41,808 bases of DNA from a virus. The notes below the pieces were generated by a model. It was given only the letters and a program-made list of their open reading frames with translations, ran no database searches and was not told the origin of the DNA. Shown in pieces: positions 15,831 through 41,808 of the stretch; positions within the stretch are counted from its first letter, which is position 1; every line of letters starts with the position of its first letter. Position numbers and translations under genes: made by a program. The DNA lies in the IMG/VR virus record IMGVR_UViG_3300027583_000001; one strand, written 5' to 3'.

Positions 15831-15881
15831 TGGCTCAACCGTTAAGTCTCTGACTCTAAATCAGAATCATTCTCATCTTGT

Positions 15882-17704: not shown

Positions 17705-17808
17705 TTGGCTGATCCTGGTTCAAAAGTACTCAGCAGCATCCCAATGGTGATCCCGAACGTGAAGCACGAGACACACGCCACAAGCCAAAATATTGTTCCA
17801 GCGTTCAT
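17701..17808 (-). CDS. Micro-ORF, 35-aa TM peptide (MNAGTIFWLVACVSCFTFGITIGMLLSTFEPGSAK)
   Basis: Not in the track. ATGA- and GTGA-coupled at both ends. Confidence 0.4.
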   Translation of the reverse strand: MNAGTIFWLVACVSCFTFGITIGMLLSTFEPGSAK

Positions 17809-18011: not shown

Positions 18012-18018
18012 GCGTCCT

Positions 18019-18048
18019 CCGTAACAGACCGTAACTATTGCGTAACAG
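18019..18048. promoter_or_regulatory. Three helically phased (C)CGTAAC(AG) repeats overlapping the SD of 17805..18011
   Basis: GTAAC at 18021, 18031 and 18042 (spacing 10 and 11 bp). CCGTAAC occurs twice and CGTAACAG twice. Confidence 0.4.
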
Positions 18049-18078
18049 CATCCTGAGTTTCCCTACGGGACTGCGCTG

Positions 18079-18093
18079 TTTTAATCATTAAAA
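18079..18093. promoter_or_regulatory. AT-only 7-1-7 palindrome TTTTAATcATTAAAA in an otherwise GC-rich genome
   Basis: The arms ttttaat and attaaaa are exact reverse complements. Followed by tattac. Confidence 0.35.
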
Positions 18094-18219
18094 TATTACT
18101 CCCATAGTCCGCCTTCCGCTTACCCACCCACCTCCTGTGGATACGCGCCCTAGGTCTAACCTGCTATACGGTAGATATCTCTCGGTCACCTGCTACTCCG
18201 TAGTAACTCAACCCCGAAA

Positions 18220-18585
18220 GACCATACCGAAAGATACTTTGAAGCAGGACCAAGGTTCAGCGGGAATCGAACCCTTAACCTCTGACACCAGTCAGATGCC
18301 CTGATCCTGCTCGAAATACCCTTCGGTATGAAGTCCACCCTATCCCCCACCGGGTTAGCGGTTAGGAGGCGCTCGGAATCCTCATCTGCGAATGAGGCAA
18401 GTTCGCGGCACCAGACTTGCTGGCTATTCCGAGTTCTGTGACAGCAGCCCTCGGGCGGCCCATAGTCTCTCTCGCGGTCAAGCGGCAATTTCAAACGGGG
18501 GTAATTGACTGTAATGGCAGAACGCTTTACAGTTACATCCGTTCTTCTTCGCACGTAGAACATAAACCCAACTCCCTTGGTCGTC
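18220..18585. ncRNA. Candidate structured RNA (class and strand unresolved)
   Basis: No credible CDS. Nested long-range helices: 18223-18231 cataccgaa / 18322-18330 ttcggtatg; 18243-18249 agcagga / 18305-18311 tcctgct; 18372-18379 ctcggaat / 18426-18433 attccgag. Local hairpins at 18281-18296, 18380-18397, 18411-18423, 18508-18533 and 18541-18561. Confidence 0.4.
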
Positions 18586-18618
18586 AAGCCCCCTTTTCAG
18601 GGGGTTTTGGCGTTTTGG
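18586..18618 (+). terminator. Intrinsic terminator oriented for the plus strand
   Basis: aagccccc-ttttca-gggggtttt then ggcgtttt: GC stem plus T-run on the plus strand. The reverse complement has no T-run. Confidence 0.6.
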
Positions 18619-18624
18619 GGGTCA

Positions 18625-18650
18625 TAAAAAAGCCCCCAGTGAGGGGGCTT
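18625..18650 (-). terminator. Intrinsic terminator for minus-strand gene 18670..19308
   Basis: The minus strand reads AGCCCCC-tcact-GGGGGCT followed by TTTTTTAT, about 20 nt after the stop. Confidence 0.8.
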
Positions 18651-18669
18651 CATTGTTCCCGCGGGAACT

Positions 18670-19308
18670 TTACGCGGCTTTCTTCCTCCGCTCGTGCTGC
18701 GGCAGATCATCCAAGATATGCTGCAATCTCGCCATGCACTCCTCTACCGCTGCTCTCGCCTGATCCGGGTCTTCATCGACCCACGTCATAACGCGCTTCT
18801 CCACCTTCGATAGCGCAGCCATGACCAATTCCATTTTCGGGGCTTCTGGTTGCTTAGCCAGAGCGAAGGTCCGTAAGGCCGTCTTCGTGACAGTCAATAC
18901 GCTGAGGCTTCGCACATCCCCGCCGGCCTTGATGTAACTCTGCAGCGTACTTGCCGCTGATCGGGCAAAGTTCGCCCGACCATTCCTCACTCCCGCTCGA
19001 GCGCGTCGCTCATCAACGCTCAAAAGCTCGTCGTCCTTTACATCGTCACTCGTGACACCTCGTAACACCGCGTGGTAATATGTCGTGTGGATCTCATGCA
19101 CATATTCACTGTGGCTGTGCAGATCGGTGTCTTTCAGCTTGCGCTTACCCGGAAATTTCGCCTGTAGCGAGGCGATTAAGATCCGAAGGTAAGCACCGTC
19201 TACCCGCTTCGCTCCTTCTGAACAGGCGCGATAGTTGACGGCGAGTAATTCAACATCATGCTCATCCGCGAGATAATGAGCTTTTTCAACCTTGTCGATA
19301 GTCTCCAT
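18670..19308 (-). CDS. Hypothetical early protein (212 aa from METIDKVEK)
   Basis: GGAGAAACCC precedes the ATG at 19308. The protein looks all-helical. It is the largest early-left gene, with no motif recognised. Confidence 0.65.
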   Translation of the reverse strand: METIDKVEKAHYLADEHDVELLAVNYRACSEGAKRVDGAYLRILIASLQAKFPGKRKLKDTDLHSHSEYVHEIHTTYYHAVLRGVTSDDVKDDELLSVDERRARAGVRNGRANFARSAASTLQSYIKAGGDVRSLSVLTVTKTALRTFALAKQPEAPKMELVMAALSKVEKRVMTWVDEDPDQARAAVEECMARLQHILDDLPQHERRKKAA

Positions 19309-19348
19309 GGGTTTCTCCAGAACTTGAGTTCTCGAACAATCAACGTCC

Positions 19349-19552
19349 CTATCCTGTATCCATAGCATCACCTCCTGTTAGCGACTGACTCACGCACTCC
19401 GGTGCTGTATGTGTGACGACACCCGCCTTTGTGTAACGGTTAACCGGCATCCGATCGTTATCTGAGACGACGACCCGCGTTGCATTGCAACGGGAACAGC
19501 GCGACTTCGTGACGTGCGGATAACGCTCGACGAGTACCCAACTATGCCGCAT
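19349..19552 (-). CDS. Hypothetical small protein (67 aa) with CSRC...C
   Basis: Same-strand ORF downstream of the XRE gene. Confidence 0.45.
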   Translation of the reverse strand: MRHSWVLVERYPHVTKSRCSRCNATRVVVSDNDRMPVNRYTKAGVVTHTAPECVSQSLTGGDAMDTG

Positions 19553-19621
19553 CGCGCAATACCGTATACCAATAGAACGCGATCTCCTGACAGATGAGTT
19601 CCGTCAGGTCAATATCCACGA

Positions 19622-22312: not shown

Positions 22313-22921
22313 ATGAAGGCTCTATTTCTGGCTCTGCTTTTGACCGGTACCGCATCCGCTTTGAACCTACCGATACCGCCCGGCTACCCAATTCTGCTCG
22401 GGAGGTCATGCGGCAGCGTCTTCGTTGCCTCATACATTGAGGGTTTCGACACGGCCGGCAACGTCCACGGAGAGTTGAGGGCATCCACTCGATGTCCCAC
22501 GAGCGGGCGCGGGGGTGGCTCGATTACTTACACGTCATACCACGCCATCACCTGGGACTTCTTTGGCGGCTATGTGTTGAGCGCCTATGACGGCGGAGCG
22601 TTGAATCCCGCTGAAGTTGCCGTCGATGCCTACGGTAACGTGGCACAAGTCGTGAACAACGTACCGACGCTAACGCTCAATTACCTGCCGCCCACCGCAA
22701 AACACATCGCGGCCATCGTTCCGGTGACAGCCGGAAAAGCGCAGGCAATCGCGACGGCGCAATTAACGGCCTTGGGATTCGTGCCGAGCATTACCTACGT
22801 CTATACCGGGACGGCGCCCGCAGGGTCGGTGCTGTACACAACTCCCGCGGCGGGACTCATGGAGCCGGTAGGCGCCGCGATACAAGTCGTCGTCTCTCTA
22901 GGCGGCGGAAACAACGACTAG
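22313..22921 (+). CDS. Secreted protein with a C-terminal PASTA domain
   Basis: 202 aa. Sec signal MKALFLALLLTGTASA-LN. C-terminal VPVTAGKAQAIATAQLTALGFVPSITYVYTGTAPAGSVLYTTPAAGLMEPVGAAIQVVVSLG fits the PASTA consensus (vP.v.G....A...L...Gf.......G.V....P.aG......g..v.l.vS.G). Confidence 0.7.
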   Translation: MKALFLALLLTGTASALNLPIPPGYPILLGRSCGSVFVASYIEGFDTAGNVHGELRASTRCPTSGRGGGSITYTSYHAITWDFFGGYVLSAYDGGALNPAEVAVDAYGNVAQVVNNVPTLTLNYLPPTAKHIAAIVPVTAGKAQAIATAQLTALGFVPSITYVYTGTAPAGSVLYTTPAAGLMEPVGAAIQVVVSLGGGNND

Positions 22922-25919: not shown

Positions 25920-26136
25920 TTTTGCTGCGAAGAGAATCAGCGATGCGGACGAATGGCGCATCATTCGAGTGGCATACGCAGAGACGTATCCGGTGCGATT
26001 GCTGCTCAACCACTACGATGAACTTGCAGCCCTGCTGCGTCGAGCCGCCAAGGCATTCCCGTACGACGACGGATGGCTGCATGAGGCGCAGTCCCTTTTC
26101 GATGGCTCACAGGCTGATGCCGGAGTAAAACCATGA
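25912..26136 (+). CDS. Hypothetical early protein (74 aa, GTG start)
   Basis: GGAGG lies about 8 nt upstream of the GTG at 25912. Confidence 0.55.
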   Translation: MTDFAAKRISDADEWRIIRVAYAETYPVRLLLNHYDELAALLRRAAKAFPYDDGWLHEAQSLFDGSQADAGVKP

Positions 26137-27515
26137 TTTCCAATTCCGCCCTCCCCTTTGCCATGCCCTCAAGCGATGTTTTCTTTGCATCTCCGAAGAA
26201 GGTGTTTGCGCACTACTTTCGCTCCTTCGGCCTGTCCATCGATAATCAGCCCGCGACAACTGATTACTACAATATGCAGTTCCTCTCCATCGGCGGAGAG
26301 AATGGCAAACACGCCGCCTATGGAGGCTATTTACGCCAACGTTCCCTTCCCGTGACACCGAGCATCCTTGCGACTTGGAAGCAGTTCAACATGGAGACGG
26401 AGGTACAGATGGCGATTGCCCGAGGCATCACGGGCTTTTGCTTCGATATCCTGTCTTTGACCGATGGGTTTTTGCAAACCATGCTATCGGCGGTCGAAGC
26501 GGCGGACCCCCGCTTTACCATCATCCCCATGCTCGATATGAGATCCTTGGGTGCCATCACGGTCGCCCAAGCGGCGACGTACTTAGAATCGATCGCAAGT
26601 TCCCCCGCCTTGAAGCGCCTTCCCGATGGGCGATTAGTGCTTGCTGCCTACAATGCGCCGCTACAACCACCCTCCTGGTGGCTCTCGCTCATCGAAACCT
26701 TGAACGCGCAGGGGATCAACGTGGCGTTTGTCCCTGTATTACCTGGAGCGCCCGCGGATGCCGGCGCACTGAATGCCATCAGTTACGGGACGGGCGGATG
26801 GGGTACCGCAACGCCTGCCCCGTCAGCAGCTCTGACCGCGGCTGGCGCTCATTTAGCGGGCCTTAAATACATGTCACCCGTGATCCCGCAACAGTTTCGG
26901 CCTAAGAATCAAATATTCTGGGAGGCATCCAACAGCGTGACCTTCCGTAATGCGTGGATGGCCGCCATCAATACCGGCGCTGACTGGGTTCAATGTGTCA
27001 CGTGGAACGATTTCAGCGAATCAGGGCAGGTTTGCCCTTACACGGATGCGACCTTAAACGGCGCAATTGGGACAGCGTTCTATGACCTCACTGCCTATTA
27101 CGCCGCCTGGTTCATCACGGGGATACAACCCGCCATTACCCAGGACGTGCTGTATTGGATTCATCGGCTGGAAACCGCCTCCAGTGCCCATCTGCAACCA
27201 GACGGCTTTACAGCGGTTGGGGGGCCAGAAGAGGACAGCATCGAGCTATTAGCCTTCCTGACGGCTCCTGGTGCGCTCCAGATCACGATTAACGGGGTTA
27301 CGCATACTCAGGCAGCGCCGACAGGCATCACCTCGTTCAAAGTCCCCTTAAGCGCTGGAATCCCGGTCTTCACCTTGCAGCGCAATGGCTCGAACGTCTT
27401 TTCAGGTCGCAGCGTTCAGATCCACGGACCCGAGGGACTGCCGAGTGGGGTGTTGGATATGACCTACTGGGGCGGGAGTATCACGAAAGCTGGCGCGACT
27501 GCTTATGGGCTCTAA
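26133..27515 (+). CDS. Glycoside hydrolase family 71-like (alpha-1,3-glucanase / mutanase-like), no signal peptide
   Basis: 460 aa. The blocks KKVFAHYF, ARGITGFCFDI, YMSPVIPQQF, VQCVTWNDFSESGQV, VLYWIHR and FKVPLSAGIPVFTLQRNGSNVFSGRS parallel fungal GH71 blocks I recall (VFCHF, GIDAFALN, YLAPVSPWFF, IVTWNDYGESHYV, LVYWYRR, FALTRNGQTVFSGTS). Confidence 0.7.
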   Translation: MISNSALPFAMPSSDVFFASPKKVFAHYFRSFGLSIDNQPATTDYYNMQFLSIGGENGKHAAYGGYLRQRSLPVTPSILATWKQFNMETEVQMAIARGITGFCFDILSLTDGFLQTMLSAVEAADPRFTIIPMLDMRSLGAITVAQAATYLESIASSPALKRLPDGRLVLAAYNAPLQPPSWWLSLIETLNAQGINVAFVPVLPGAPADAGALNAISYGTGGWGTATPAPSAALTAAGAHLAGLKYMSPVIPQQFRPKNQIFWEASNSVTFRNAWMAAINTGADWVQCVTWNDFSESGQVCPYTDATLNGAIGTAFYDLTAYYAAWFITGIQPAITQDVLYWIHRLETASSAHLQPDGFTAVGGPEEDSIELLAFLTAPGALQITINGVTHTQAAPTGITSFKVPLSAGIPVFTLQRNGSNVFSGRSVQIHGPEGLPSGVLDMTYWGGSITKAGATAYGL

Positions 27516-31029: not shown

Positions 31030-32790
31030 TTAGGTTCCATAATAATTCATGGTCGGCAGACCGGTATAAGTAACAACGACAGCTTGACCATTCGGTAAAA
31101 TAACACTGGTATTAGTGGCAAAGGCGGCAACATTGCCGAATTGAACGCTACTGACCGTGCCGCTACTCACTTGCACAATAATTGCATCCCCCGTGAGATT
31201 GGTATACGTGAAAGGGGATGCGCCTACTGTAATGGCTGTGGATGGTAACGGGTTATAGCCCTGGTTCTTCGATATCATCTTGGAGGCCACCGTTGGCACA
31301 TCTAAAATGGCTCCGGTAATGTTTCCGCGAGCGTTAATCCCGATGATCTGATAGTTGGTACACAGCGTATCGACCATCACGCCGTATCCCTGCTTGTTGG
31401 AAATGCGCGCGTTGTTAGCCCCGTATGATCCCCCGATGATTGACCAATCGGTAGTGTTCATATAAGCGCCGTGATAGGCGCCTGAGCTTGCTTGACTGTT
31501 CGCGCCAACTTGGCAATTAACAAGTCCTATCTTTGTGCCAGCGACGCATGAAATCCCAGGGCCTTGATTGTTCTCAGCAATAAAATTGGTGAGCGTCACG
31601 CCTTGTACAGTTCCTCCCGCTACGATGGAGAAACCAGCGCCCCCTGCGTTGGTGCAGGAAGAACCCCAGCAATTCACCAAGGAAATGTTGGTAATGACTC
31701 CGGTGCCCGTGGGTGCGAGCAGCCAATTATTTGTGGGGCATGTGTCGGCAATCACTTGATCGCAGAAAAGCGCCGTGACGTACTGACCATTGCCGGGGTT
31801 GATCAACACACCATTATTTCCGGCCGCCACGAGTTTCGAGAGATAAACACCGCTCGCGTTGACGACGTTGATTCCCGGCCCCGTAGTTCGGTTCATGGTC
31901 GAATTGGCAATTCTCAATTCTTGTACGAGCCCGCCAGAAGCTCCTATCAAGATTCCATTCGTTCCTGACTGGATAGCGAACGTGTTGAGAAAATAAAACA
32001 GTTGTTGGGCTCCGCCATCAAACTGAAATCCCGTAAATAAATTAAGGCCGAGAATGATGTTATCGAGAAATACGTAGGAACTATTCTGTACACGAATCGC
32101 TGCACCGCTTGACTTGGAAACAGAGGCAGTCACCGTGAATCTACTAACGCCCACATAGGATGGCGCGGTAACACCATCTCCGATTGAGATCAAATCTCCT
32201 GTCGAATTGGCAAATGATAGAATAGAAACCTGCTGAGTCACACCCGCCAAATAGACCTTAGTCGAGGTCCATTGAAGCGTAGAGGATATTTTATAAGTGC
32301 CAGCGGGGACAAAGACTGTCCCACCATTAACTGCCGCTACGGCAAGGGCATTATTAAATGCAGCAAGACTGTCCGTGACATTCGAAGGATCAGCGCCGTA
32401 ACGAAGGACGTTTAATGATGGATACGTGTAGTTCGTCGGTGTTACGCCCGCGGTCGTCTCGGCGCCGGTCAGTGGGTAGACACTAGAGATATTAAGCGAC
32501 GGATAGACGTTATCAATCGTCTTAATGGGACTCGTCGGCGGGTCCGTATCATTCGCAGGCGCGAGAACAAACTTATAGACAAGCGCCGGATCGAGCCACA
32601 CATTCGCGCTCGCATCCGAGGCCAAAATGATGGGGTTCGTGTTCATCGTCCCCATGGTGGAATCGGTGTACGTGACTTGCTTGGTGCTGGTTCCAGCAAT
32701 GTACGTAAAGAGCTTTCCGCCCACCAACGGCGCCACGCCAGAGGCGTTCTGGAACCGCTGAAAAAGCTCTGGAGCTAGGACGGCGGTCAC
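31030..32790 (-). CDS. Tailspike with a pectate-lyase-type right-handed beta-helix (probable polysaccharide depolymerase)
   Basis: 586 aa. LNVLRYGADPSNVTDSLAAFNNALAVAAVNGGTVFVPAGTYKISSTLQW is the Pectate_lyase_3-type entry motif. The N-terminal anchor is shared with 33089..34717. Confidence 0.8.
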   Translation of the reverse strand: MTAVLAPELFQRFQNASGVAPLVGGKLFTYIAGTSTKQVTYTDSTMGTMNTNPIILASDASANVWLDPALVYKFVLAPANDTDPPTSPIKTIDNVYPSLNISSVYPLTGAETTAGVTPTNYTYPSLNVLRYGADPSNVTDSLAAFNNALAVAAVNGGTVFVPAGTYKISSTLQWTSTKVYLAGVTQQVSILSFANSTGDLISIGDGVTAPSYVGVSRFTVTASVSKSSGAAIRVQNSSYVFLDNIILGLNLFTGFQFDGGAQQLFYFLNTFAIQSGTNGILIGASGGLVQELRIANSTMNRTTGPGINVVNASGVYLSKLVAAGNNGVLINPGNGQYVTALFCDQVIADTCPTNNWLLAPTGTGVITNISLVNCWGSSCTNAGGAGFSIVAGGTVQGVTLTNFIAENNQGPGISCVAGTKIGLVNCQVGANSQASSGAYHGAYMNTTDWSIIGGSYGANNARISNKQGYGVMVDTLCTNYQIIGINARGNITGAILDVPTVASKMISKNQGYNPLPSTAITVGASPFTYTNLTGDAIIVQVSSGTVSSVQFGNVAAFATNTSVILPNGQAVVVTYTGLPTMNYYGT

Positions 32791-33092
32791 ATCACACCTT
32801 CAGCGGGTAGCGTGTCATAGCCTTCAGGCTCCCCGTTCAAAAAGAGATTCAGTATCTCGCACGGTTCATTCGCGACAATTCTATGCCTGACCGTACCGTC
32901 AAAATCAAACACCTCACCCGCGCTTAAACGTACCGTGCGCCCCTCTTCCACAAAGTCACACGACCCTTTAAGGACAATTGTGTTATGCACGCTCGTGGCA
33001 TCGTGAACATGCGCAGGCAGTGACTCGCCCGCCTCGAAGCGGTAGCGAATGCCGAATAAAGCGCCTGATCGGTAGAATTGAAAGTGCGTCAT
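32787..33092 (-). CDS. Small cupin-domain protein (101 aa)
   Basis: LPAHVHDATSVHNTIVLKG (HxH...) and SAGEVFDFDGTVRHRIVAN resemble cupin motifs 1 and 2. Overlaps both neighbouring RBP genes by 4 nt. Confidence 0.6.
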   Translation of the reverse strand: MTHFQFYRSGALFGIRYRFEAGESLPAHVHDATSVHNTIVLKGSCDFVEEGRTVRLSAGEVFDFDGTVRHRIVANEPCEILNLFLNGEPEGYDTLPAEGVM

Positions 33093-34717
33093 ATGAACTT
33101 CGCAATCACTTTGCCGGCCTGTCCAGTTGCACCCGCATTTGCTGCCGTATTGCCGCCGAGGCCACCGGGGTTACCCGTGCCATTAGTGCCCGCGATACCT
33201 AGTCCGCCCGCGCCTCCAGAGTTACCTAGTCCGCCCGTAGTGCCAGCATTACCCGTGGTGTTGGTCGTGTTGCCGCCCGATGCCGTACCGCCCGCACCGC
33301 CCGTGCCTAAGCCTCCCGACACACCACCATTGCCACCGTTCAACGTCATGGTCGGGATGGCAAAGGTTCCGCTTGAGATAGTTGTTACGCCGCCATTGCC
33401 ACTCGACGCAATCCCCGCCGCACCAATAACAACGGTGATCGTTTGTCCATTGAAGGCCGCGACATTGAGTACAGTCTTACCATAGCCGCCTGATCCGCCT
33501 CCACCGCCACCGTGCGCAGTACAGCCAGAACCGGAGCCAGAACCACCAGCACCCGTAGTGCCCCACCCTTCGAGCGTCATGGTGGACGCCCCCACGGGGA
33601 TCGTGATGGCGAATGTCCCTTGAGTGTTCAAGGTCGTGGTAACCGGCGTAAATCCACCCGTAGCCGATGAGATGCGAGTGATGCGAAGGTAAGAGCCGAT
33701 ACCTAATACGCTCGCGGTCGCGTTGGATGCGTTTTGCGCCCACTGGAAGCTTAAGGTGCCTCCCGTGGTACAGAGAAGCGTCGCCTCGATCGGCATAAAT
33801 CCCACTGCGGTCTGAGCTGTTTGCAGCGTCGCCGTGGTGTTGATGTTGGTGAGGGAGACGGGAGTGACCGCAGTCCCAACCCCGTTCATGCCCCAAGAGC
33901 CGGTGGAAATGGTACCCGAGTAGTTGATCTGGCCTTTGAGCCCCCCCGCGGACGTGCCGGAGCCGTCATTGAGCATGCCTTTGATGACATACGTACCACC
34001 CGCGGGCAGTGTGACAGTCAAATCAGGATCATTCGCGACCGTGATATTCGCGGCAATCGAAGTCACCGTATTTTTGACGATGTACCAGTCGATAGAGGGA
34101 TAGCGGCGTAAGTACCGACCGGGGTTGCCACTCCCAATGGCGTTCGGCTTGATGACGTTGATCCCATCATCCGTCGCCGTGCTTAAAACGTTCCAGTAGA
34201 ATTCACCCCCCAGGCTATCGCTGACACTCGTTCCGCCCTCGAACTCTACGATGAGCGTCTGACCCGCGGCAAACACAGGTACGTTGGCTGACCGTGCGCT
34301 TGAGAAAAGGTCATAGGAGCGCACCGCATTGGCAACCAAATCCGCACCGAAGCCTGTGGCGGGATTTGCTAAAGCGGTATTCGTGAATGACACATCGTTG
34401 ATGCCTGAGAGCTGGTCGAGCGTAGGGCCTATCTGCGTGCCAAAGACCGGTGAACCGGATGTCCCCGCATTGGTGCTGATCTGCACCTTGATCGAAACGC
34501 CCGCAGCTTGCCAGATCGCCACATTCGGCAGGCGGCCTGCACTGTTGAACTGAATGGGGTTACCGTTCGGCGTGGCTCCGGTCGAATCCGTGTAAGTCGC
34601 GACAGGGGTCGAAGTGCCCGCGGCATACGTCCATAGCAGCGCATTGGTTAATACCGCGCCCGAGTCCTGAAAGACCTGAAGGATGGTCGAGAGAGGACAG
34701 AGGTAAAAACTAGCCAT
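33089..34717 (-). CDS. Tail fibre / second receptor-binding protein with a Gly-rich C-terminal domain
   Basis: 542 aa. N-terminal LLWTYAAGTSTPVATYTDSTGATPNGNPIQF parallels KLFTYIAGTSTKQVTYTDSTMGTMNTNPII of the tailspike. The C-terminal ~150 aa are GGxGG-type repeats. Confidence 0.75.
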   Translation of the reverse strand: MASFYLCPLSTILQVFQDSGAVLTNALLWTYAAGTSTPVATYTDSTGATPNGNPIQFNSAGRLPNVAIWQAAGVSIKVQISTNAGTSGSPVFGTQIGPTLDQLSGINDVSFTNTALANPATGFGADLVANAVRSYDLFSSARSANVPVFAAGQTLIVEFEGGTSVSDSLGGEFYWNVLSTATDDGINVIKPNAIGSGNPGRYLRRYPSIDWYIVKNTVTSIAANITVANDPDLTVTLPAGGTYVIKGMLNDGSGTSAGGLKGQINYSGTISTGSWGMNGVGTAVTPVSLTNINTTATLQTAQTAVGFMPIEATLLCTTGGTLSFQWAQNASNATASVLGIGSYLRITRISSATGGFTPVTTTLNTQGTFAITIPVGASTMTLEGWGTTGAGGSGSGSGCTAHGGGGGGSGGYGKTVLNVAAFNGQTITVVIGAAGIASSGNGGVTTISSGTFAIPTMTLNGGNGGVSGGLGTGGAGGTASGGNTTNTTGNAGTTGGLGNSGGAGGLGIAGTNGTGNPGGLGGNTAANAGATGQAGKVIAKFI

Positions 34718-36032
34718 ACTGCCAATCTAGGGCAAAGCCATGCGCCTGGAGCTTGGGGATCGATTCCTCGAGCGACTCCCCTACATCGTCGCGGTACATG
34801 AGATTAGGCACATGGACCTCTTTGACCGTCCCATAAGCCCGTTCGCAGGCCTTTTTGACGGTTTTCCCGAGGCCGGTAGCGACCGCCAGGTAATCACCCG
34901 TAGTGACCCAAATGTCCCGCTCTACCACGTTATCCCCTTCCATGTCGGGCATCGTGTCAATTTTGACACACTGCGGGGAGAGATACTTACTGTTCTCCTT
35001 CGTCACGCCGTAAATGGGAATGTCAGCCACCTCGGCCTTGGTGAACTTGCTATTGGGATAATCAGGTTGCGCTAGAACAATGCCGCAGGCGACCGCTGGA
35101 GAGGTTAAGAGCGTATCTTTCCCCTCGCAGGCATCAAGCATCCACTCGATAGGATCGCCCTTGTGAGTGGCCCACAGGATGTTAGCCGCGGGCCAGCCTA
35201 GCCGAGTCGTGAACTCCAAGGGCCAGGCCTTACCCTTCTCATCAATGATGCAGTTCACGTCGATATCGCCAAAGTGGCCCATCTTGACGAGATCGTCCTC
35301 TAACGGGGCCAGAACGTCGTCGAACAGCTTTGAATCTGCTGTGTACTTGAGCAAAGTGCCAGATTCTCCGCAATTGGGGCCACAGTTACCAGAGAGTAAC
35401 TTTTTGAACTCGAAGTTCTCGTTAGGCTCACCGATAAAGCCCTCAGACCCCATCCAACGCGAGACAGCAAACTCAATCCCATCCACCACCGTTTGGAGCA
35501 TAAACGGGCCTTTGCCGGCCACTTTTAAGCGTTGCCACCGCTGCAAGCGCGCGATCATGTCAGCGGGAGACTTACCGACATACGACAGGCTTTTGTCGTC
35601 CTCGCTGCCTAAAGTTTTGAAGACGTACCGCTCACCCGTCTTTCGCACGTGCGCCTCGGCTTCGGCGAGGGTCGCAAATTGCTTCCACTCGGGACATTCG
35701 ATGTCGTGATCCTCGAAAAACTTCATCCCCTCGGCGCGTTTAACCTCAAGGTTCGCAGACTCGACAGACGGGCCAAACACGTTCACCCCGGCCTTTCTGA
35801 GCATCTGTAGCTTGGGCATGAATTCGTGGTTGCCCGATGGAACGACCAAATCAGCCCATTTGACAGATGACAGCCAGTTATCGACTTTTTCAATTCCTTT
35901 GAACCCGGTCGCAGTTTCTTTGTGATTATCAGGGGCTAAATAAAGGCGTACCTGATGACCCGCTTTGACAGCGCGGATCGCCAGGGGTAGAAGTTCGCCG
36001 ACTGAATCCATGGAAATTAGGAGTACCTTCAT
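34710..36032 (-). CDS. PurD-like (glycinamide ribonucleotide synthetase family) ATP-grasp enzyme
   Basis: 440 aa. MKVLLISMDSVGE.., VNVFGPSVESANLEVKRAEGMKFFEDHDI, NFEFKKLLSGNCGPNCGESGT, PLEFTTRLGWPAANILW and GDYLAVATGLGKTVKKACERAY align block for block with E. coli PurD as I recall it (IFGP..AAQLEGSK.F.K.F, DHKRVGDKDTGPNTGGMG, IEFNCRFGDPETQPIM, GGRVLCVTALG.TV.EAQ.RAY). Confidence 0.75.
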   Translation of the reverse strand: MKVLLISMDSVGELLPLAIRAVKAGHQVRLYLAPDNHKETATGFKGIEKVDNWLSSVKWADLVVPSGNHEFMPKLQMLRKAGVNVFGPSVESANLEVKRAEGMKFFEDHDIECPEWKQFATLAEAEAHVRKTGERYVFKTLGSEDDKSLSYVGKSPADMIARLQRWQRLKVAGKGPFMLQTVVDGIEFAVSRWMGSEGFIGEPNENFEFKKLLSGNCGPNCGESGTLLKYTADSKLFDDVLAPLEDDLVKMGHFGDIDVNCIIDEKGKAWPLEFTTRLGWPAANILWATHKGDPIEWMLDACEGKDTLLTSPAVACGIVLAQPDYPNSKFTKAEVADIPIYGVTKENSKYLSPQCVKIDTMPDMEGDNVVERDIWVTTGDYLAVATGLGKTVKKACERAYGTVKEVHVPNLMYRDDVGESLEESIPKLQAHGFALDWQYG

Positions 36033-36144
36033 GTGCTACGTGGTTTGTTTATTTATCGGTATGGTCATCGGCAAATGGCTGTACGAACCTAAACCACAAG
36101 TGTATGAGGGAGTTCGCTATACCGTGTCGAAGGACGGCACTTAA
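36031..36144 (+). CDS. Antisense-oriented micro-ORF, 37-aa TM peptide (MCYVVCLFIGMVIGKWLYEPKPQVYEGVRYTVSKDGT)
   Basis: Not in the track. It exactly fills the 112-bp gap between two minus-strand genes. AGGAG (36019-36023) lies 7 nt upstream of the ATG. Confidence 0.35.
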   Translation: MCYVVCLFIGMVIGKWLYEPKPQVYEGVRYTVSKDGT

Positions 36145-38088
36145 TCACTGCTGATCCTGCAAGGTAGGCGCGGCGGACGGCGCAGCTCGCTGCAAATCCT
36201 GTAAGGTGTTTTTGCGCTTCACTGCCTGATTTGCGTCTTTAGCCGCTTGCTCTAACGGGTTGACCGTAGCAGCTTTCGCATCAGCTGCTTCGTGGAGCTT
36301 CTCGGCTCCCTTCTTGATGACAGTCCCAATCGTGTGCATCCCTGGCACATGCGAGAGTTTATCGATCATGGCAATCATGCGAGGGGTCGTGTTAGGCCCT
36401 GCAATGCGATCAGCCGGCTTAGTCCGTAAGTCTCGCGTCGCTTCCCTCAATTGCCGCAATGTTGCCTTTGCGGCGGGACCAAAGAGCGTGTCTAGCTTGC
36501 CATCCTTGTCCAGTTCATCGACCGCATCGATAAAGCTCGAGTTGAACTGCAATTGCTCATCCTCACCCCGAATCGCACGCTTGCCTGCTGCTTTCTCTTT
36601 GAGGTAATCGATGGTCGCCGCCCGAAGGTCATCGACCGCAACCGCACCTCGCGCCTGGGTTTTCTTCGTGCCGCCCTTCGTGAGCGAGTCAATCAGCCCT
36701 TTCAATTGCTCGTTAGAACCCGACCGCACTACCTTGTCAAACGTATCCTCTAGCGCTACTGCGCGATCTGTGGTGCGGCCTTTCTCGCTGGTCAATGACT
36801 TGATGAGCCCCTGACGATCAAACTCTGCCTTCGTCTTGGCAAAGGCCTTGCGAGCGGTCTTATAGGCATCCCCACCCGCTTGATCCAAAATGTCATCAAT
36901 GACCTTAACCGCTTGTTTGGCGTAGTGCGCTTCTGTCTTATCGGCAGAGCCTACCTTGACGTTCGCTTCCTTACGCACTTCCTCAAGGTCATTGATGCGA
37001 ATCGACCCGGAGGCGTCCTTTTTATAGTCCTCCAATGCCTGTCGAAGAAAGCCAGCATTGCGCTTATTCGCCGGCACGTTGAGCCAATCATCTAGCGGAG
37101 TGGCGTCCACGGGAGAGGCAGTTTCCCCTCCTTGCTTGGCCTTTCGATACTTCGCCCGGTAATCAGCCTCCAAGGTGCGCAATTTAGCCCGTTCCGCCCC
37201 TTGAACGCTTTCGCCCAGTTGAGAACGAGTTTCGACCTTACTCGGCGGTCGTACCGTGTCTAACTTTTTGTGAAGCGCCAAATCCTGAGCGGTATTGATC
37301 TCGCGCACAGGCTTTCCAGACGCAGCACGGGAGATGTTCTCTTCATGCGTCAGTTGCTCTAGGCTTCGGGTCGCTTGCCCTCGGGAGATGGGAGCGCCAA
37401 CGGCTTGCGCACGGGCAACTCGTTTGACGGCGGTGGGATCGAGATTATCCAGGTTCTTTGAGTCTTTCGCGATGCTCGTGAGCGTCTCACGTGTCTTAGC
37501 AGCCAAATCATTCCATACAAGGCCAATACGTCCGGCATAAGCCTCCGCTGCTTTGGCCGCTGTTGCTGCACCGGCCCCTGATGCTACCTTAGCCCCTTTC
37601 AGTCCGAGCAACATCGGAGCGGCTTGAATGGCCGTATTAGCTCCCGCGGCCATCGCAGGAGTAACAGTGCCTTTTGTGGTATCCCCAAAAGTCGCCATCT
37701 CCGGGTCTTGGTAGCCCTTGTCCATCAGGGCTTGACCCGCCGCATCGGCACCCTTGGCAAGAGCATTGAATGGTGCAGCAATGGCCCCTGAAATCATCTT
37801 TCCTGAGTCGGTGCGCGGCTGATAGGTCATCGACTCCTGAATGGCTTTGGGATCGCCGCCAGCAAGTCCAGCTAACCCGCCGACAACGGCTCCCGCCGCA
37901 CCCGTGACCATCTGGGCTGCGGCTTCCGTGGGGCCGAAAATCTCAAAAGCAGGGTGAACTTTGTCCGACTTCTCGCCCGTGTCCTTGGCGGCAATATGAG
38001 TCTTTACCACCTGCTGAATGACGGAGGGATCAGTTCCATCTGGAAACTCCATGGTACCGATCCCTTCCACCTCGGCTTTGATCGACAT
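36145..38088 (-). CDS. Ejection / internal virion protein (P22 gp16 position and size class)
   Basis: 647 aa (gp16 is 609 aa). Third gene of a 223/475/647-aa trio in the gp7-gp20-gp16 order. Ala/Lys-rich and helical. Confidence 0.6.
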   Translation of the reverse strand: MSIKAEVEGIGTMEFPDGTDPSVIQQVVKTHIAAKDTGEKSDKVHPAFEIFGPTEAAAQMVTGAAGAVVGGLAGLAGGDPKAIQESMTYQPRTDSGKMISGAIAAPFNALAKGADAAGQALMDKGYQDPEMATFGDTTKGTVTPAMAAGANTAIQAAPMLLGLKGAKVASGAGAATAAKAAEAYAGRIGLVWNDLAAKTRETLTSIAKDSKNLDNLDPTAVKRVARAQAVGAPISRGQATRSLEQLTHEENISRAASGKPVREINTAQDLALHKKLDTVRPPSKVETRSQLGESVQGAERAKLRTLEADYRAKYRKAKQGGETASPVDATPLDDWLNVPANKRNAGFLRQALEDYKKDASGSIRINDLEEVRKEANVKVGSADKTEAHYAKQAVKVIDDILDQAGGDAYKTARKAFAKTKAEFDRQGLIKSLTSEKGRTTDRAVALEDTFDKVVRSGSNEQLKGLIDSLTKGGTKKTQARGAVAVDDLRAATIDYLKEKAAGKRAIRGEDEQLQFNSSFIDAVDELDKDGKLDTLFGPAAKATLRQLREATRDLRTKPADRIAGPNTTPRMIAMIDKLSHVPGMHTIGTVIKKGAEKLHEAADAKAATVNPLEQAAKDANQAVKRKNTLQDLQRAAPSAAPTLQDQQ

Positions 38089-39515
38089 CAGGTCACCGGG
38101 TTGCCTTTGGCATCGAACTTAAGAACCTTGGGGGCATCGTCTTTAGGGGTGTCCCCGCCCTTACCCGTAACCCCTGCAATGCTTTCCTCAACACCCGACT
38201 TAGACGCCTCGATACCCTGCCGAACCGTCTTTTTGATCGACTTGAACTGATCTTTCGTGATGAGGTCCGGAATCACCTTCTCCGCCTCGTGGCGGGCCGC
38301 ATCCGTGACCTGACCACCCTTGGATAGCACAATGGAGTATTCCGCCCTCAACTCAGCTACGGCGGCTTTGTAGGCCGTTAACGCGGGGTCGCTGTTCTGT
38401 TCCTTGCTCCAGGCTGAAAAAGCACCCGCCGCTTTGAGCTTCGAGAAATCGACTGCGTTGACCGCTTGTTCGGCTTGATCCAAGAAGCCACCGGGTTTCG
38501 TGATGGACTTCTCGACCGGGAGAATTGCCGCCTCGCGCCGGCCCAAAACACCGCTTTCAGTCTTTGCCACCTGCATACTGATCGTGCCGTCTTTGATCCC
38601 TTGTGCAATCTCATCGGTTGTCTTGTCGGGATATTTTCGGATCAGGCCGTCAAGGGTCGAATTCTGCGTTTCCTTGTTGCGAAGTCCAGCCGGAAGGGTC
38701 GCCCCGATTGCGGCTATCGAGGCAAGCAAATCCCCGCGCTTGGCCTGAGCGTCGGGAGTTCCGCCGCCCGTGCCCTTAGCCTCCATCGCCCGATCATGCC
38801 GCTCTCGTTCCGCCTCTCCGCGCTCGGCTATATCCGCTTTCTTGGCCCCAGTTTGAGCGGTCAAATCATCACGCATGGACTTTAATTGCGCCTGTCCCTG
38901 TTTGGTCGAGCGCTCGATCTGCGTCAACGTGTCGTAGGTCACCTGACCGTTCTGCGCGGTGAATTGCTGCATCCCCTGCAAAGCTGTCTTTTTGACAGGT
39001 TCCGGCAAGCCTGAGTCACTTTGAACCGCGTTCAAGGTAAGCGGCACTTGACCCTGAATCCAGGCATTGATACTCGCGTCCGTGTACTTAGGCCGACCGT
39101 CTGGGGTCTTTTCGTTCTTCATGGCGGTCGCTTGCATCCAAATCTTATCGACCGACTGCGCGATGATGTCCTGAGCTGCTGAATGCAATTCGACCTTTTG
39201 CCGCTGATTATCGAGTTCGCCAGATTCTTGTTGCTGCGCGTACTTCATCACTTCCATGGCGCGGCCCGCCTGACCTGACTTGGTGAGTTTTTGTGCGAAT
39301 TCCGCTACCCCCTCTTTCGTCGTAAGATTCGCGCCCTTTGACAATGTTTTAAACTGCTCATCATCGGCAAGGGTGGCTTTTTCCTTATTCAGTTTCAGTT
39401 GATTGAGTTGCTGGGTATCAACCATATCCTTGAGCTGAAATCCCTTCGCCATGGAGCCCGTGATATCGGGGCCGGAAGCGCCAATGTCAGCAATCACTGA
39501 GGGGTCAAAAGCCAC
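38088..39515 (-). CDS. Ejection / internal virion protein (P22 gp20 position and size class)
   Basis: 475 aa (gp20 is 471 aa). Its stop shares one base with the start of the next gene. Confidence 0.6.
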   Translation of the reverse strand: MAFDPSVIADIGASGPDITGSMAKGFQLKDMVDTQQLNQLKLNKEKATLADDEQFKTLSKGANLTTKEGVAEFAQKLTKSGQAGRAMEVMKYAQQQESGELDNQRQKVELHSAAQDIIAQSVDKIWMQATAMKNEKTPDGRPKYTDASINAWIQGQVPLTLNAVQSDSGLPEPVKKTALQGMQQFTAQNGQVTYDTLTQIERSTKQGQAQLKSMRDDLTAQTGAKKADIAERGEAERERHDRAMEAKGTGGGTPDAQAKRGDLLASIAAIGATLPAGLRNKETQNSTLDGLIRKYPDKTTDEIAQGIKDGTISMQVAKTESGVLGRREAAILPVEKSITKPGGFLDQAEQAVNAVDFSKLKAAGAFSAWSKEQNSDPALTAYKAAVAELRAEYSIVLSKGGQVTDAARHEAEKVIPDLITKDQFKSIKKTVRQGIEASKSGVEESIAGVTGKGGDTPKDDAPKVLKFDAKGNPVT

Positions 39516-40186
39516 TATCCACCTCCCGCACTTTGCGTGTCTGCGATAACAGTGGGCGGGGCCGGGTTATTGAGCCCCTGAAGGGTGTTGTAGGTCGCGT
39601 ATTGATTGACGCCGCCCGATATCGCTTTTGTAACGCCTGCCGCGGTATTGGCATCGATGCCGGCCAACGTATTACCCTGATTCATCAGAGTGCTCGATAT
39701 GCCCTGGCCGGTCTGCATGATGCCCGCACCCGTACCCGCTGCAGCGTTTTGACCGATGCCCACTGCGTTCTGCGCATTACCGACCGCATTTTGATAGGTG
39801 GAGTCGGCAAGCCCAGTCGAAAACTTATCGAGAGATTCGAGCGTATTGCCAGAGAGGGACATGCCAGACGCACTGGCTGCGTTTTTGGTTGCATCGAGCC
39901 CTTGCTGTTTGGCGAACTGATAGCCGGGAGTCGCTGCTAGAGTTGATTGAATCCCCGCCGATCCTTGCGGGCCAATGCCTAACAGGTTCTGGTACTGCTG
40001 GATCGCACCCCCAGTCCCAATCGCGGCATAGGGCGCATTTAATGCCTCTTGCTTGGCTTGAGCGGCTTGCTGTGCGGCGATGGAAGCATTGGTCGCATCC
40101 TTGGTTGCACCCGCGGCCATGCTGCCCGCTGCCATACTCGCCCCGCCTGCAATGACTGCCCCTCCAATGACCGCTGCCGCTACCAT
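39515..40186 (-). CDS. Ejection / internal virion protein (P22 gp7 position and size class), Gly/Ala/Gln-rich
   Basis: 223 aa (gp7 is 229 aa). Hydrophobic Gly/Ala N-terminus MVAAAVIGGAVIAGGASMAAG. Confidence 0.6.
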   Translation of the reverse strand: MVAAAVIGGAVIAGGASMAAGSMAAGATKDATNASIAAQQAAQAKQEALNAPYAAIGTGGAIQQYQNLLGIGPQGSAGIQSTLAATPGYQFAKQQGLDATKNAASASGMSLSGNTLESLDKFSTGLADSTYQNAVGNAQNAVGIGQNAAAGTGAGIMQTGQGISSTLMNQGNTLAGIDANTAAGVTKAISGGVNQYATYNTLQGLNNPAPPTVIADTQSAGGG

Positions 40187-40187: not shown

Positions 40188-40643
40188 CTAATCTCCCAAC
40201 CACTTCGAGTAGAATTTCTCGACTTCGGTGTATTTCAGCCTCTCAAAAAGCCAAGACGCATCCTTATGCATCTTAGACCCTACAAACATGCGCTGCACGC
40301 CTCTATTACGGGCTTCCTGCTCGACAAACCGAAAGAGTTTTACCCCTGCCATGCCGCCGCGGGCTTTAGGGTGTATCCAGAAAATATCCATTTGCAAGGT
40401 GAGGCAGGTCTTGTAATGCAGTCCTGGGGCCACGAACCCGACAAAATAGCCGACGATTTCCCCCGCCTCTCGCGCGCAAATGAACATCACTTGACCCAAT
40501 GCTTCCCGGTCGAGATACACGTCGTACTGGGGGTCTAAGGGTACTTTGTCCTGATTGAGCGCCAACTCTTTCCAGTGCTCAGGAAACAACGGGATGAGAT
40601 TTGGCAGCTCATCAGACAGAAGTTCTACGGCGAAGGTAATCAT
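40188..40643 (-). CDS. GNAT-family N-acetyltransferase
   Basis: 151 aa. GEIVGYFVGFV...LQMDIFWIHPKARGGMAGVKLFRFVEQEARNRGVQRMFVGS has the GNAT beta4-alpha3-beta5 layout. Confidence 0.7.
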   Translation of the reverse strand: MITFAVELLSDELPNLIPLFPEHWKELALNQDKVPLDPQYDVYLDREALGQVMFICAREAGEIVGYFVGFVAPGLHYKTCLTLQMDIFWIHPKARGGMAGVKLFRFVEQEARNRGVQRMFVGSKMHKDASWLFERLKYTEVEKFYSKWLGD

Positions 40644-41227
40644 ACGGGCTGCGTCGGCAGTTCCCCCTTGAATGAGAGGTGTTGAGTGCGAATGTCGATA
40701 ATGAGGTGGATTCGATCCCCGGCGCTGTTATTGAACACCTCATGCTCAATAGCGTTTTGAAACCACCACACCTCCCCCGTTGCCATCTGTACGCGCTCAT
40801 CCCCGCACCTAAAGTCCACTCCTGGGGTGCTTTGAACCACGTAGTGAAACCGATCCCAGTAATCAGCATGTACGGGGGTGTCGGCATGAGGAAATATCCG
40901 CCCACCGGGCCTGATCTTGTTCAGCATCACTCGTCCTAGACGCTCCCCCTCAACCGTGGTCATCAGATTGAAGATAAGCCCCCTGGAAGCCGGTAAATGC
41001 AGCGTCCCATCCATCCACGCGCATTCGTGCTGATCCTTCGTACCGCGCTCTAATTCGCTTAGCGAGGCTGGCGGAAAGCGCAAGAAGATCGTCTCCACGT
41101 CATTAAACGGCCCTTGCGGATAGTCGCGAAGGTAGGTATCGGCCTTCCACAGTTCAGGTTGCCGCTGGATCTGCACCATCAGCGGGGTCATGTTGATGCC
41201 TTGGGCAAGCCTCAGAAAGTTCTTCAT
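40640..41227 (-). CDS. Aspartyl/asparaginyl beta-hydroxylase-family (cupin-fold Fe(II)/2OG) oxygenase
   Basis: 195 aa. IFPHADTPVHADYWDRFHYVV...GEVWWFQNAIEHEVFNNSAGDRIHLIIDIR matches the Asp_Arg_Hydrox pattern (H.D....R.H, GE.W.F....H.V.N.S...R.HL..D). Confidence 0.75.
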   Translation of the reverse strand: MKNFLRLAQGINMTPLMVQIQRQPELWKADTYLRDYPQGPFNDVETIFLRFPPASLSELERGTKDQHECAWMDGTLHLPASRGLIFNLMTTVEGERLGRVMLNKIRPGGRIFPHADTPVHADYWDRFHYVVQSTPGVDFRCGDERVQMATGEVWWFQNAIEHEVFNNSAGDRIHLIIDIRTQHLSFKGELPTQPV

Positions 41228-41490
41228 ACCACCGCCCCGCTGGCGTTATGCCACACGATAGACGGGCTGATTTGATGCACGAACACCGGATACCCTAGTG
41301 TTTGGTCGTAATAGGATAGGCCTATCCACAGGTTCTTCGTCGGTCGAGCGGCCGTCGTTCCGAACTGCCCGATAGGCCCTAACCACTGCTGAATACCCCC
41401 GAACCACGCCTGATAGAGCTTATCGAGCAAATCCCCCTTTTGCGTGATGATGGGCCGGGTCGGGATGGGAGTTGTGCTATTGAAGCTCAT
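41224..41490 (-). CDS. Hypothetical virion-module protein (88 aa) directly after the gp10-like gene
   Basis: Coupled at both ends. Contains GTTAARPTKNLWIGLSYYDQTLGYPVFV...VWHNASG. Confidence 0.55.
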   Translation of the reverse strand: MSFNSTTPIPTRPIITQKGDLLDKLYQAWFGGIQQWLGPIGQFGTTAARPTKNLWIGLSYYDQTLGYPVFVHQISPSIVWHNASGAVV

Positions 41491-41808
41491 CCCATCTTCT
41501 CCGCGGGAGGTCTTTCGGCAATCTTGATCGCCCCTTCGGTAATGACGAACTTCACCGGGTCACTCATGCGAATTTTGAACACGTAGTCCCGTGCCGAGCC
41601 AAACCGTCTCCACAAAACCCTGGTCAGATAGGTGCCCACCGCTCCCAACGTCACCCACCGCTCGGCTGACCATGTTCGACCGTTATCCTTGGAGGTTTGC
41701 AGCATGATCTGCGGGTTAGAGCCCTGGCCGGTCTGTAAGCCAACGCCTGTTTCCATATCGAGATACAGCAAGGATATGCGAATGCGGTTGAAGTTCGAGA
41801 GGATGTGC
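41487..41808 (-). CDS. C-terminal part of the gp10-like tail hub gene (continues from 1..1217 across the circular junction)
   Basis: The track ORF 41487..41771 starts at a TTG that is simply an internal Leu codon of the wrapped gene. It ends ...RVLWRRFGSARDYVFKIRMSDPVKFVITEGAIKIAERPPAEKMG, compared with the P22 gp10 end ...RVLWKRVGRIRRLIGFKLRVITKSPVTLSGCQIRLE as I recall it. Confidence 0.8.
   Translation of the reverse strand, partial: HILSNFNRIRISLLYLDMETGVGLQTGQGSNPQIMLQTSKDNGRTWSAERWVTLGAVGTYLTRVLWRRFGSARDYVFKIRMSDPVKFVITEGAIKIAERPPAEKMG
41710..41808. repeat. Terminal direct repeat copy 2 (identical to 1-99)
   Basis: 99 of 99 identical to the window start. Confidence 0.97.

Follow-up and report, generated by a model that had tools for sequence, protein, structure and literature searches.

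A PurD-related ATP-grasp family with altered substrate-site residues, encoded beside the ejection cassette in numerous phage lineages

The virus genome IMGVR_UViG_3300027583_000001 carries, between its ejection proteins and its tail fibre, a single gene that resembles PurD, the glycinamide ribonucleotide (GAR) synthetase of purine biosynthesis. What is a lone relative of a purine enzyme doing in a late structural operon? We call the whole stretch of 41,808 nt analysed here the window. The gene, to which we give the working name PurDL (PurD-like ATP-grasp ligase), is an open reading frame (ORF) of 440 amino acids (aa) with an ATG start. A preliminary description made from the sequence had placed this ORF correctly at 34710-36032; the strand, which it did not give, is minus. 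We favour, with about even confidence, the reading that PurDL is an active ATP-dependent carboxylate-amine ligase that uses new substrates and is functionally tied to the ejection module, and that it is not a purine gene.

The relationship to PurD can be followed in sequence, profile and fold. PurD chains in the PDB match PurDL with E-values from 6.5e-20 to 1e-11. The TIGR00877 model of PurD matches with E = 3.3e-24, scoring 85.5 bits against a cut-off of 288, and the Pfam domains all score below their gathering thresholds (GARS_C 33.9 bits against 34.8, GARS_A 19.8 against 27 and GARS_N 12.8 against 29.5). Alignment by hhalign of a 54-member family profile with true PurDs covers the full length (residues 1-418) with a probability of 100% and E = 2.9e-42. 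The AlphaFold2 model of PurDL has a predicted local distance difference test score (pLDDT) of 91.8 and a predicted template-modelling score (pTM) of 0.90. Low pLDDT is confined to two flexible catalytic loops, one of them including residues 218-225, as expected for ATP-grasp loops. The four-domain N-B-A-C architecture is complete, GARS_C included, and to it the family adds a C-terminal helix of its own and a conserved Gly-aromatic motif. Each of the 15 best matches that Foldseek returned from the PDB is a PurD, with template-modelling (TM) scores of 0.69-0.75; next come biotin carboxylase, PurK and PurT (TM ~0.55-0.65). Pfam and TIGR scans gave no biotin-carboxylase or PurK signature, and a fold search of BFVD found no close viral structure, the best match (TM 0.46) lying among unrelated ATP-grasp types. 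In a neighbour-joining tree with the family the bona fide PurDs form an outgroup on a long branch. The homology of PurDL to PurD is far beyond chance, and the preliminary view of the protein as a divergent PurD homologue is supported.

The active site can be compared with that of PurD residue by residue. Residue numbers of PurD are those of the E. coli/Salmonella enzyme, their roles are taken from published work (PMC8880213, PMC2978367), and the counts come from an alignment of 54 sequences reaching down to 27% identity. The positions and segments of interest are as follows, with the PurD residue given first.

Kept in 54 of 54 sequences each: E102 as E96, K105 as R99, K145 as K139, E194 as E187.
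Kept in 54 of 54 sequences each: D214 as E208, K216 as K210, E286 as E273, R290 as R277, R416 as R414.
Replaced: D293, which holds the glycine amine, by W/Y/F in 51 of 54 (W280 in PurDL).
Replaced: E295, which holds the glycine amine, by a small or hydrophobic residue (A/L/T/S).
Replaced: R383, the GGRVL arginine of the C-domain, by Y in 42 of 54 (Tyr381 in PurDL).
Replaced: N288 by T in 53 of 54 (Thr275 in PurDL).
35985..36014, minus strand: residues 7-16 (SMDSVGELLP), the slot of PurD GxGGREHA; the motif is lost and the segment is variable in the family.
GGREH columns: R11 becomes D/L/E/V/N, E12 becomes G/A/S and H13 becomes L.
35358..35381, minus strand: residues 218-225 (GPNCGESG), the catalytic loop equivalent to PurD GPNTGGMG, with the family-specific Glu223.
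35190..35219, minus strand: residues 272-281 (LEFTTRLGWP), the Mg/acyl-phosphate site equivalent to PurD EFNxRxGDPE.

Ten residues are invariant in all 54 sequences (E96, R99, K139, E187, E208, K210, G225, E273, R277 and R414). Among them PurDL has the ATP-binding lysine and glutamate, the Mg-binding acid and the arginine that stabilises the acyl phosphate. In the EFT site the glutamate and the arginine are present in 54 of 54 sequences, the threonine in 53 (serine in 1 of 54) and the aromatic residue (W/Y/F) in 51. The canonical asparagine that provides the second Mg ligand (E-x-N) is absent, Thr275 standing in its place, and D258 and N260 sit at the position of the first ligand. The motifs quoted in the preliminary description are present at residues 218-225 and 272-281, and so is the C-domain string GDYLAVATGLGKTVKKACERAY, for which the pattern given was one position short between V and G. 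What had been called an E/N metal site is there in LEFTTRLGWP, carrying T and no N.

The residues that define the substrates of PurD have fared differently from those of catalysis. The arginine and glutamate of GGREH are proposed to bind the phosphate and ribose of phosphoribosylamine (PMC2978367), and the motif is found in none of the top 150 family representatives. The GGRVL arginine corresponds to human R385 and is conserved with the GAR-binding arginine of PurT. Two of the four glycine-contacting positions, R277 and E208, are kept. In place of the lost residues the family has newly conserved ones, namely Q180 (52 of 54), E223 (49 of 54), D258 (51 of 54) and N260 (48 of 54), and the alternative set that runs through the whole family comprises R99, Q180, E208, E223, D258/N260, T275, W/Y280 and usually Y381. 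Judged from these alignments, the chemistry of ATP, Mg and acyl phosphate is predicted to be preserved, and both substrate sites of PurD appear to have been remodelled alike throughout the family. PurDL is predicted to be a catalytically competent, PurD-derived ATP-grasp ligase.

These replacements bear directly on the possibility that PurDL is a divergent genuine GAR synthetase that boosts host purine synthesis. Full-length homology and a PurD fold are what such an enzyme would have, and R277 and E208 remain from the glycine site. JGI labels many family members 'phosphoribosylamine--glycine ligase', and viral purD/GART has been reported as a purine auxiliary gene (PMC11097641, PMC11360552, PMC12647753). 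The equivalog score is far below its cut-off, GGREH, R383, D293 and E295 are replaced family-wide, and a scan of ~48 window ORFs, including every ORF of at least 169 aa, gave no match to a purine-pathway family, just as the preliminary description had it. A lone re-tooled PurD would also gain little from a substrate as short-lived as phosphoribosylamine, whose half-life is seconds and which is thought to be handed over from PurF (PMC2978367). Conservation of the PurD substrate residues was the check named beforehand, and the outcome favours the earlier opinion that a plain role in purine synthesis is unlikely. With the positions for phosphoribosylamine and for the glycine amine replaced in the whole family, GAR synthesis by PurDL is very unlikely.

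The family is large. An exhaustive search over 1.84 billion cluster representatives gave 1851 matches at E <= 1e-3 and 193 at E <= 1e-30, which puts the family at no fewer than 193 clusters at 50% identity. The 150 best representatives, which reach down to 29% identity, all carry EFTxRxG[W/Y]P. Word-indexed searches added hundreds more clusters on ~40-kb contigs, and 504 IMG/VR contigs encode a relative. Three of these contigs, of 77-160 kb (L187, L197 and L221), carry two copies a few kb apart. Among 50,697 phage records tblastn found one relative, the metagenomic MW202796 (36% identity); the remaining matches are host purD genes on contaminated 'phage' records. A megablast search of 25 kb of the window against the same records gave no match, and a PHROGs scan of the PurDL protein gave no family at E <= 0.01. 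A literature search on phage, virion or ejection ATP-grasp proteins and on phosphoribosylglycinamide synthetase found no publication that describes the family. PurDL cannot be filed as PurD because every tested substrate-defining feature of PurD fails; within the ATP-grasp superfamily it belongs to a distinct, unnamed sister family of PurD, which has radiated among viruses and has an offshoot in cells.

Some members are interrupted by inteins. For this reason no fewer than 14 of the 150 representatives reach 750-816 aa (P0255, P0267, P0268, P0271, P0275, P0278, P0281, P0285-P0287, P0358, P0385, P0388 and P0392). The inteins are ~320-340 aa, contain LAGLIDADG homing endonuclease domains and have canonical splice junctions. 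They occupy three sites, all in catalytic loops: after GP[N/A], after TGExG and after EFT, which in the numbering of PurDL are N220|C221, G225|T226 and T275|T276. One of the two copies in L221 also has an intein. In general, inteins tend to occupy motifs that are critical to the function of important genes. PurDL is an intein hotspot, although the gene is neither replicative nor concerned with packaging. One further long member, P0311, has a Gly/Ala-rich N-terminal extension of 395 aa, which raised the idea of a fusion with an ejection protein. The call seems to be frameshifted in high-GC sequence and the extension has no domain match, and P0311 was not used.

To see what PurDL is encoded with, the late operon on the minus strand was laid out from ORF and family scans, in the order given here.

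Positions 1-3: terminase, portal and major capsid protein.
4373-4891, minus strand: TylF-like O-methyltransferase, position 4.
3835-4371, minus strand: class I methyltransferase, position 5.
3284-3838, minus strand: GIY-YIG/NUMOD3 homing endonuclease, position 6, between the methyltransferase and GT9.
2257-3306, minus strand: GT9 heptosyltransferase-like glycosyltransferase, position 7.
Positions 8-10: a 348-aa protein, the stabilisation protein and an 88-aa protein.
40640..41227, minus strand: Asp/Arg beta-hydroxylase-like cupin of the 2-oxoglutarate oxygenase family (PF05118, E 2.8e-15).
40188..40643, minus strand: GNAT acetyltransferase (PF00583, phrog_1249), at the 5' end of the ejection cassette.
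39515..40186, minus strand: ejection protein E1, 223 aa (phrog_598 'DNA ejection', E 9.6e-23).
38088..39515, minus strand: ejection protein E2, 475 aa, in the position of P22 gp20 by synteny.
36145..38088, minus strand: ejection (internal virion) protein E3, 647 aa, in the position of P22 gp16 by size and order.
34710..36032, minus strand: PurDL, domains N, B, A and C, position 14, 3' of E1-E2-E3.
34710..34717, minus strand: 8-nt overlap of the PurDL stop and the tail-fibre ATG, sequence ATGGCTAG.
33089..34717, minus strand: tail fibre, 542 aa, with a glycine-rich C-terminal domain, directly 3' of PurDL.
32787..33092, minus strand: cupin, 101 aa (PF07883, E 4.9e-11).
31030..32790, minus strand: tailspike, 586 aa, a pectate-lyase-like beta-helix (phrog_2234, PF12708).

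The genome is circularly closed at ~41.7 kb. The ends of the window repeat ~100 nt (1-100 = 41709-41808), and the gene for the P22 gp10-type stabilisation protein crosses the junction (3-1217 plus 41490-41807, minus strand). E3 has no Pfam or PHROG match and is assigned from the sizes of 223, 475 and 647 aa and the order after a Phage_stabilise protein. The name of the fibre is based on its position and on N-terminal similarity to the tailspike ORF; its match to PF21722 (Gly_rich_2) is weak, at 19.8 bits against a cut-off of 24.3. The GC content of PurDL equals the genome mean. The spacer between E3 and PurDL (36033-36144) is 112 nt long, compared with ~470 nt in the relative L003 (9530-10000). 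No obvious ORF, promoter or terminator was seen in it, and a promoter and terminator scan around PurDL gave no signal between E3 and PurDL and fewer sites than shuffled sequence. The 8-nt overlap with the fibre gene was correctly described at the outset, as was the place of PurDL in a late structural operon with ejection proteins on one side and the fibre on the other. The overlap suggests translational coupling of PurDL and the fibre.

A near-identical contig is deposited within a metagenome-assembled genome (MAG) of 'Candidatus Acidoferrales', where the protein is HXN95984.1. The TylF-like O-methyltransferase, the methyltransferase and GT9, in the head-to-tail part of the operon, are candidate enzymes for glycosylating either virion or cell envelope. 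Relatives encode the methyltransferase and glycosyltransferase as a single protein of ~500-530 aa. The preliminary description mentioned none of these three enzymes, nor the extent of the family, its inteins or its cellular offshoot. Off the structural operon the window encodes a glycoside hydrolase family 71 protein (alpha-1,3-glucanase type, 460 aa; 26133-27515, plus strand) and a PASTA-domain protein (22313-22921, plus strand), both unusual in phages.

The conservation of this arrangement was followed in the loci of relatives, which were selected also through alignment of the unrelated 'stabilisation' protein, independently of PurDL. A single E2 protein used as query recovered one locus, owing to the rapid divergence of the ejection proteins. 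In 39 of the 41 stabilisation-selected loci that have enough downstream DNA, PurDL is found 5.6-8.9 kb downstream. In one more (L138) there is an insertion and PurDL is further along, giving 40 of 41. Close relatives (59-78% identical) have the order stabilisation protein, small protein, (hydroxylase), (GNAT), E1, E2, E3, PurDL and fibre. Between the same loci PurDL retains 59-78% identity, against only 22-49% for the E2 next to it, and by this comparison it is under strong purifying selection. Almost every member of this podophage clade has PurDL, as a late gene under strong constraint. A phage of the same clade (L226; CAVVLX010000006.1, 531472-552788) has a PurDL of 57% identity and the same order from GT9 to fibre. 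It lies midway along a contig of 942 kb, which suggests integration as a prophage; the MAG of that contig is labelled Thermoplasmata archaeon, a host assignment that looks doubtful.

The position is kept well beyond the close clade. In MW202796 PurDL is the last late gene, following the stabilisation protein, a GNAT and proteins of 212, 491 and 505 aa. In loci at 27-45% identity it again lies 3' of a large protein on the same strand, of 900-1340 aa in many cases, which matches phrog_511 ('internal virion protein') or has a tail-lysozyme domain (Phage_lysozyme2). This large protein is preceded by a smaller conserved protein and, often, by a GNAT. Taking all 101 loci together, the upstream neighbour of PurDL is on the same strand in 98 and is at least 450 aa long in 70. 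Down to relatives of 27% identity, PurDL is encoded within the internal-protein cassette. It does not behave as a purine auxiliary gene, being present in 40 of 41 loci in the clade, placed in a late structural operon and altered in its substrate residues.

The other neighbours are less constant. PurDL had initially been grouped with the GNAT, the hydroxylase and the cupin as a dispersed tailoring set. That grouping dissolves in the relatives, where 90 viral loci with enough upstream DNA include a GNAT in 42, a hydroxylase in 25 and a small cupin in 1. The GNAT is found upstream of PurDL in loci of 27-45% identity too, and is frequent and not obligate. A linkage of PurDL to GT9 and the methyltransferases was also considered and set aside; these genes are confined to the close clade and 2 distant loci, and are missing from the annotated MW202796. 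A fibre or spike homologue directly follows PurDL in 52 of 59 close relatives. This adjacency is not kept further out: in MW202796 the fibres are encoded upstream of the adaptor, away from PurDL, and in most of the distant relatives they are also elsewhere. On the same displacement a role for PurDL as a tail-fibre chaperone was rejected. What is conserved is the link of PurDL to the ejection cassette and, more loosely, to the GNAT, and not a link to the fibre or to a fixed tailoring set.

PurDL might also be a protein-crosslinking or RiPP-type, graspetide-like enzyme whose target is either the adjacent fibre or a short precursor peptide. Side-chain carboxylates are possible substrates of ATP-grasp chemistry, and within the close clade the gene is tightly coupled to the fibre through the overlap and the conserved adjacency. 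We consider this reading extremely unlikely. The fold and sequence are of the PurD type, with no RimK or graspetide-ligase signal. The 112-nt upstream spacer contains no ORF with a start codon, the flanking genes encode proteins of 647 and 542 aa, PurDL keeps its place where the fibres have moved, and the cellular homologues described below have no fibre. The graspetide analogy drawn in the preliminary description finds no support, as there is neither a RimK fold nor a plausible precursor ORF upstream, and downstream there is no spacer at all.

Relatives of PurDL also occur in cells. A scan of GTDB species representatives gave 355 relatives, most of them ~30% identical to the window protein. 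They carry EFT[AS]RFGYPT, are without GGREH, and have the same invariant residues as the phage members. They score 106-113 bits against TIGR00877, again far below 288, and are named 'phosphoribosylglycinamide synthetase C domain-containing protein' at NCBI. The hosts include Terriglobia/Acidoferrales, Gemmatimonadota, Woeseiaceae and Hyphobacterium, where the genes are on Mb-scale chromosomal contigs (for example L291:9980-11263, L298:9947-11272 and L301:9881-11278, from the set L234-L305). Others are in MAGs assigned to the Candidate Phyla Radiation (CPR) and DPANN groups, whose bins may be contaminated. To our knowledge these two groups are mostly without de novo purine synthesis, and with that caution about the bins the presence of the gene there counts further against a GAR synthetase.

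The cellular branch is 63-70% identical across phyla and domains (Acidobacteriota, Gemmatimonadota, Gamma- and Alphaproteobacteria, CPR and archaeal MAGs). Such similarity across phyla is far too high to fit vertical descent. In the tree these sequences make up one shallow group lying inside a much more diverse and largely viral set, a pattern that suggests horizontal spread of a self-sufficient, single-gene function. No conserved operon was found around the cellular homologues, which stand alone among lineage-specific neighbours such as BamD, a PLD-like protein, SDR, GyrA and PP2C. Mg2+ transporters are near some of them, in a few lineages that are unrelated (MgtE within 2.7 kb in L237, L238 and L304; CorA adjacent in L294); this signal is weak, at ~4-6 of ~72 loci, may be chance, and was not used.

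With residues, inteins and both branches in view, it can be asked whether PurDL is an enzyme at all. A PurD fold without enzymatic activity, recruited to the structure or assembly of the ejection apparatus, would suit the position in a structural cassette, and the exchange of asparagine for threonine at the Mg-ligand position. Such a protein would hardly be expected to hold ten catalytic residues invariant down to 27% identity and T275 in 53 of 54 sequences, to attract inteins to its catalytic loops, to keep the same residues in the cellular branch, or to be missing from one relative. We regard this explanation as scarcely credible.

The reading we favour, an active ligase tied to the ejection module, would work as follows. 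ATP would activate a carboxylate as an acyl phosphate, which would then be joined to an amine as in other ATP-grasp enzymes. The acid would be other than glycine as bound by PurD, and the amine other than phosphoribosylamine. PurDL would be expressed late, together with the ejection proteins. It might be made, and perhaps packaged, with them to act in the newly infected cell; or it might modify the ejection proteins or the virion before release. A more specific version would make PurDL, often with the GNAT, a cargo of the ejection apparatus. It would enter with the DNA and, using host ATP at the very start of infection, ligate a carboxylate-bearing group to a conserved host molecule, perhaps a protein, nucleotide or polyamine-type counter-ion. 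This could aid DNA entry, host takeover or counter-defence, and the cellular copies would be single-gene captures. We think this elaboration unlikely as it stands.

Several observations weigh against a functional tie to ejection, or against activity. The tie is drawn from synteny, which is linkage and not mechanism, and the slot between the ejection genes and the tailspike is a known accessory-gene site in P22-like phages. One relative, L134 (IMGVR_UViG_3300007735_000729, 13618-19590), has an 873-aa E3 directly before the tailspike and no PurDL within the 21 kb covered. No other of the 41 loci departs clearly from the rule, and because L134 has none at the locus PurDL is not indispensable for building the virion. 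No cultured phage with PurDL was found among the 50,697 phage records. The N-to-T change at the Mg-ligand position is unusual for ATP-grasp enzymes. Finally, the cellular genes share the family signature and have no genes for ejection proteins around them. Because stand-alone homologues keep the signature without such proteins, the substrate is probably some molecule common in cells and not a phage or ejection protein, and this tells in particular against the version in which PurDL modifies ejection proteins.

The same facts lend some strength to a different explanation, that PurDL is a ligase of small molecules or nucleic acid acting apart from the virion, whose position reflects only late timing or an accessory slot. 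It might amidate a sugar acid in glycan tailoring, or make a modified nucleotide, cofactor or polyamine conjugate. The cellular homologues, which keep the family-specific residues without phage partners, fit this well, as does the relative with no gene at the locus. So does an operon that also encodes a methyltransferase, the TylF-like O-methyltransferase and GT9, plus the GNAT, hydroxylase and cupin. The aromatic residues W/Y280 and Y381, standing where PurD has charged ones, might suit a sugar or base ligand. Yet GT9 and the methyltransferases are limited to the close clade apart from the two distant loci, the GNAT, hydroxylase and cupin are variable, and the place after a large internal-virion protein is kept at 27-45% identity, which is unusual for a freely placed metabolic gene. 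We take this explanation to be possible, and clearly less probable than an active ligase tied to the ejection module.

The assignment matters for how viral genes are counted. Viral 'purD' or 'GART' is listed as evidence of phage-boosted purine synthesis (PMC11360552, PMC11097641, PMC12647753), and one ocean survey among these reported more viral than cellular copies. If much of that signal is the PurDL family the purine inference would be wrong, because the family is without the substrate residues of PurD. Naming its members as purine genes is likely to be a systematic mis-annotation. A strongly conserved ATP-dependent ligase that closes the ejection cassette in many lineages of uncultured podophages, often facing a GNAT at the opposite end, would point to an unstudied enzymatic step concerning the internal proteins of the virion or the earliest stage of infection. 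With three intein sites and a cellular branch that crosses phyla, the family would be a tractable target for biochemistry.

Set against known systems, PurDL is closest to PurD itself (EC 6.3.4.13; TIGR00877; PDB 2YW2, 1GSO and 2QK4). The two have the N-B-A-C architecture in common over the full length, together with the ATP-binding lysines and glutamates, the Mg-binding glutamate, the acyl-phosphate arginine and a C-terminal YRxDIG motif, and the ATP-grasp acyl-phosphate mechanism is presumed to be common to both. They differ in that PurDL is ~22% identical and well under the equivalog cut-off, has lost GGREH, has EFTxRxG[W/Y]Px for EFNxRxGDPE and GxY for GGRVL, and has gained the conserved acidic residues E223 and D258/N260. 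It is also encoded in a phage late operon without purine genes. What appears to be new is an unnamed sister family with rebuilt substrate sites; the PurD fold and ATP-grasp chemistry are known. PurT and biotin carboxylase have Asp or Asn at the first Mg-ligand position, as PurDL has with D258/N260, where PurD has glycine (PMC2978367). PurDL is nevertheless clearly closest to PurD, and not to PurT, PurK or biotin carboxylase, in sequence and profile, and has GARS_C. The cellular protein of Terriglobia, Gemmatimonadota, Woeseiaceae and others belongs to the same family at ~30% identity, and differs in being a stand-alone chromosomal gene of a shallow clade without phage context.

Phages are known to carry enzymes inside the virion or deliver them from it, among them the transglycosylase domain of T7 gp16, the T4 ADP-ribosyltransferase Alt and the N4 virion RNA polymerase. 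PurDL is likewise encoded with internal or ejected proteins, and in some relatives the protein upstream has a lysozyme domain. Phage-borne ATP-grasp enzymes of the R2K clade are predicted to modify host proteins, and have been proposed as effectors in phage-host conflict (PMC4431377). They differ from PurDL, as do RimK enzymes, in that the clade described here is PurD-like. In PurZ, phages have turned another homologue of a purine-pathway enzyme to a new use, and PurDL may offer a parallel, as a relative of a purine enzyme for which a new use in phages is proposed.

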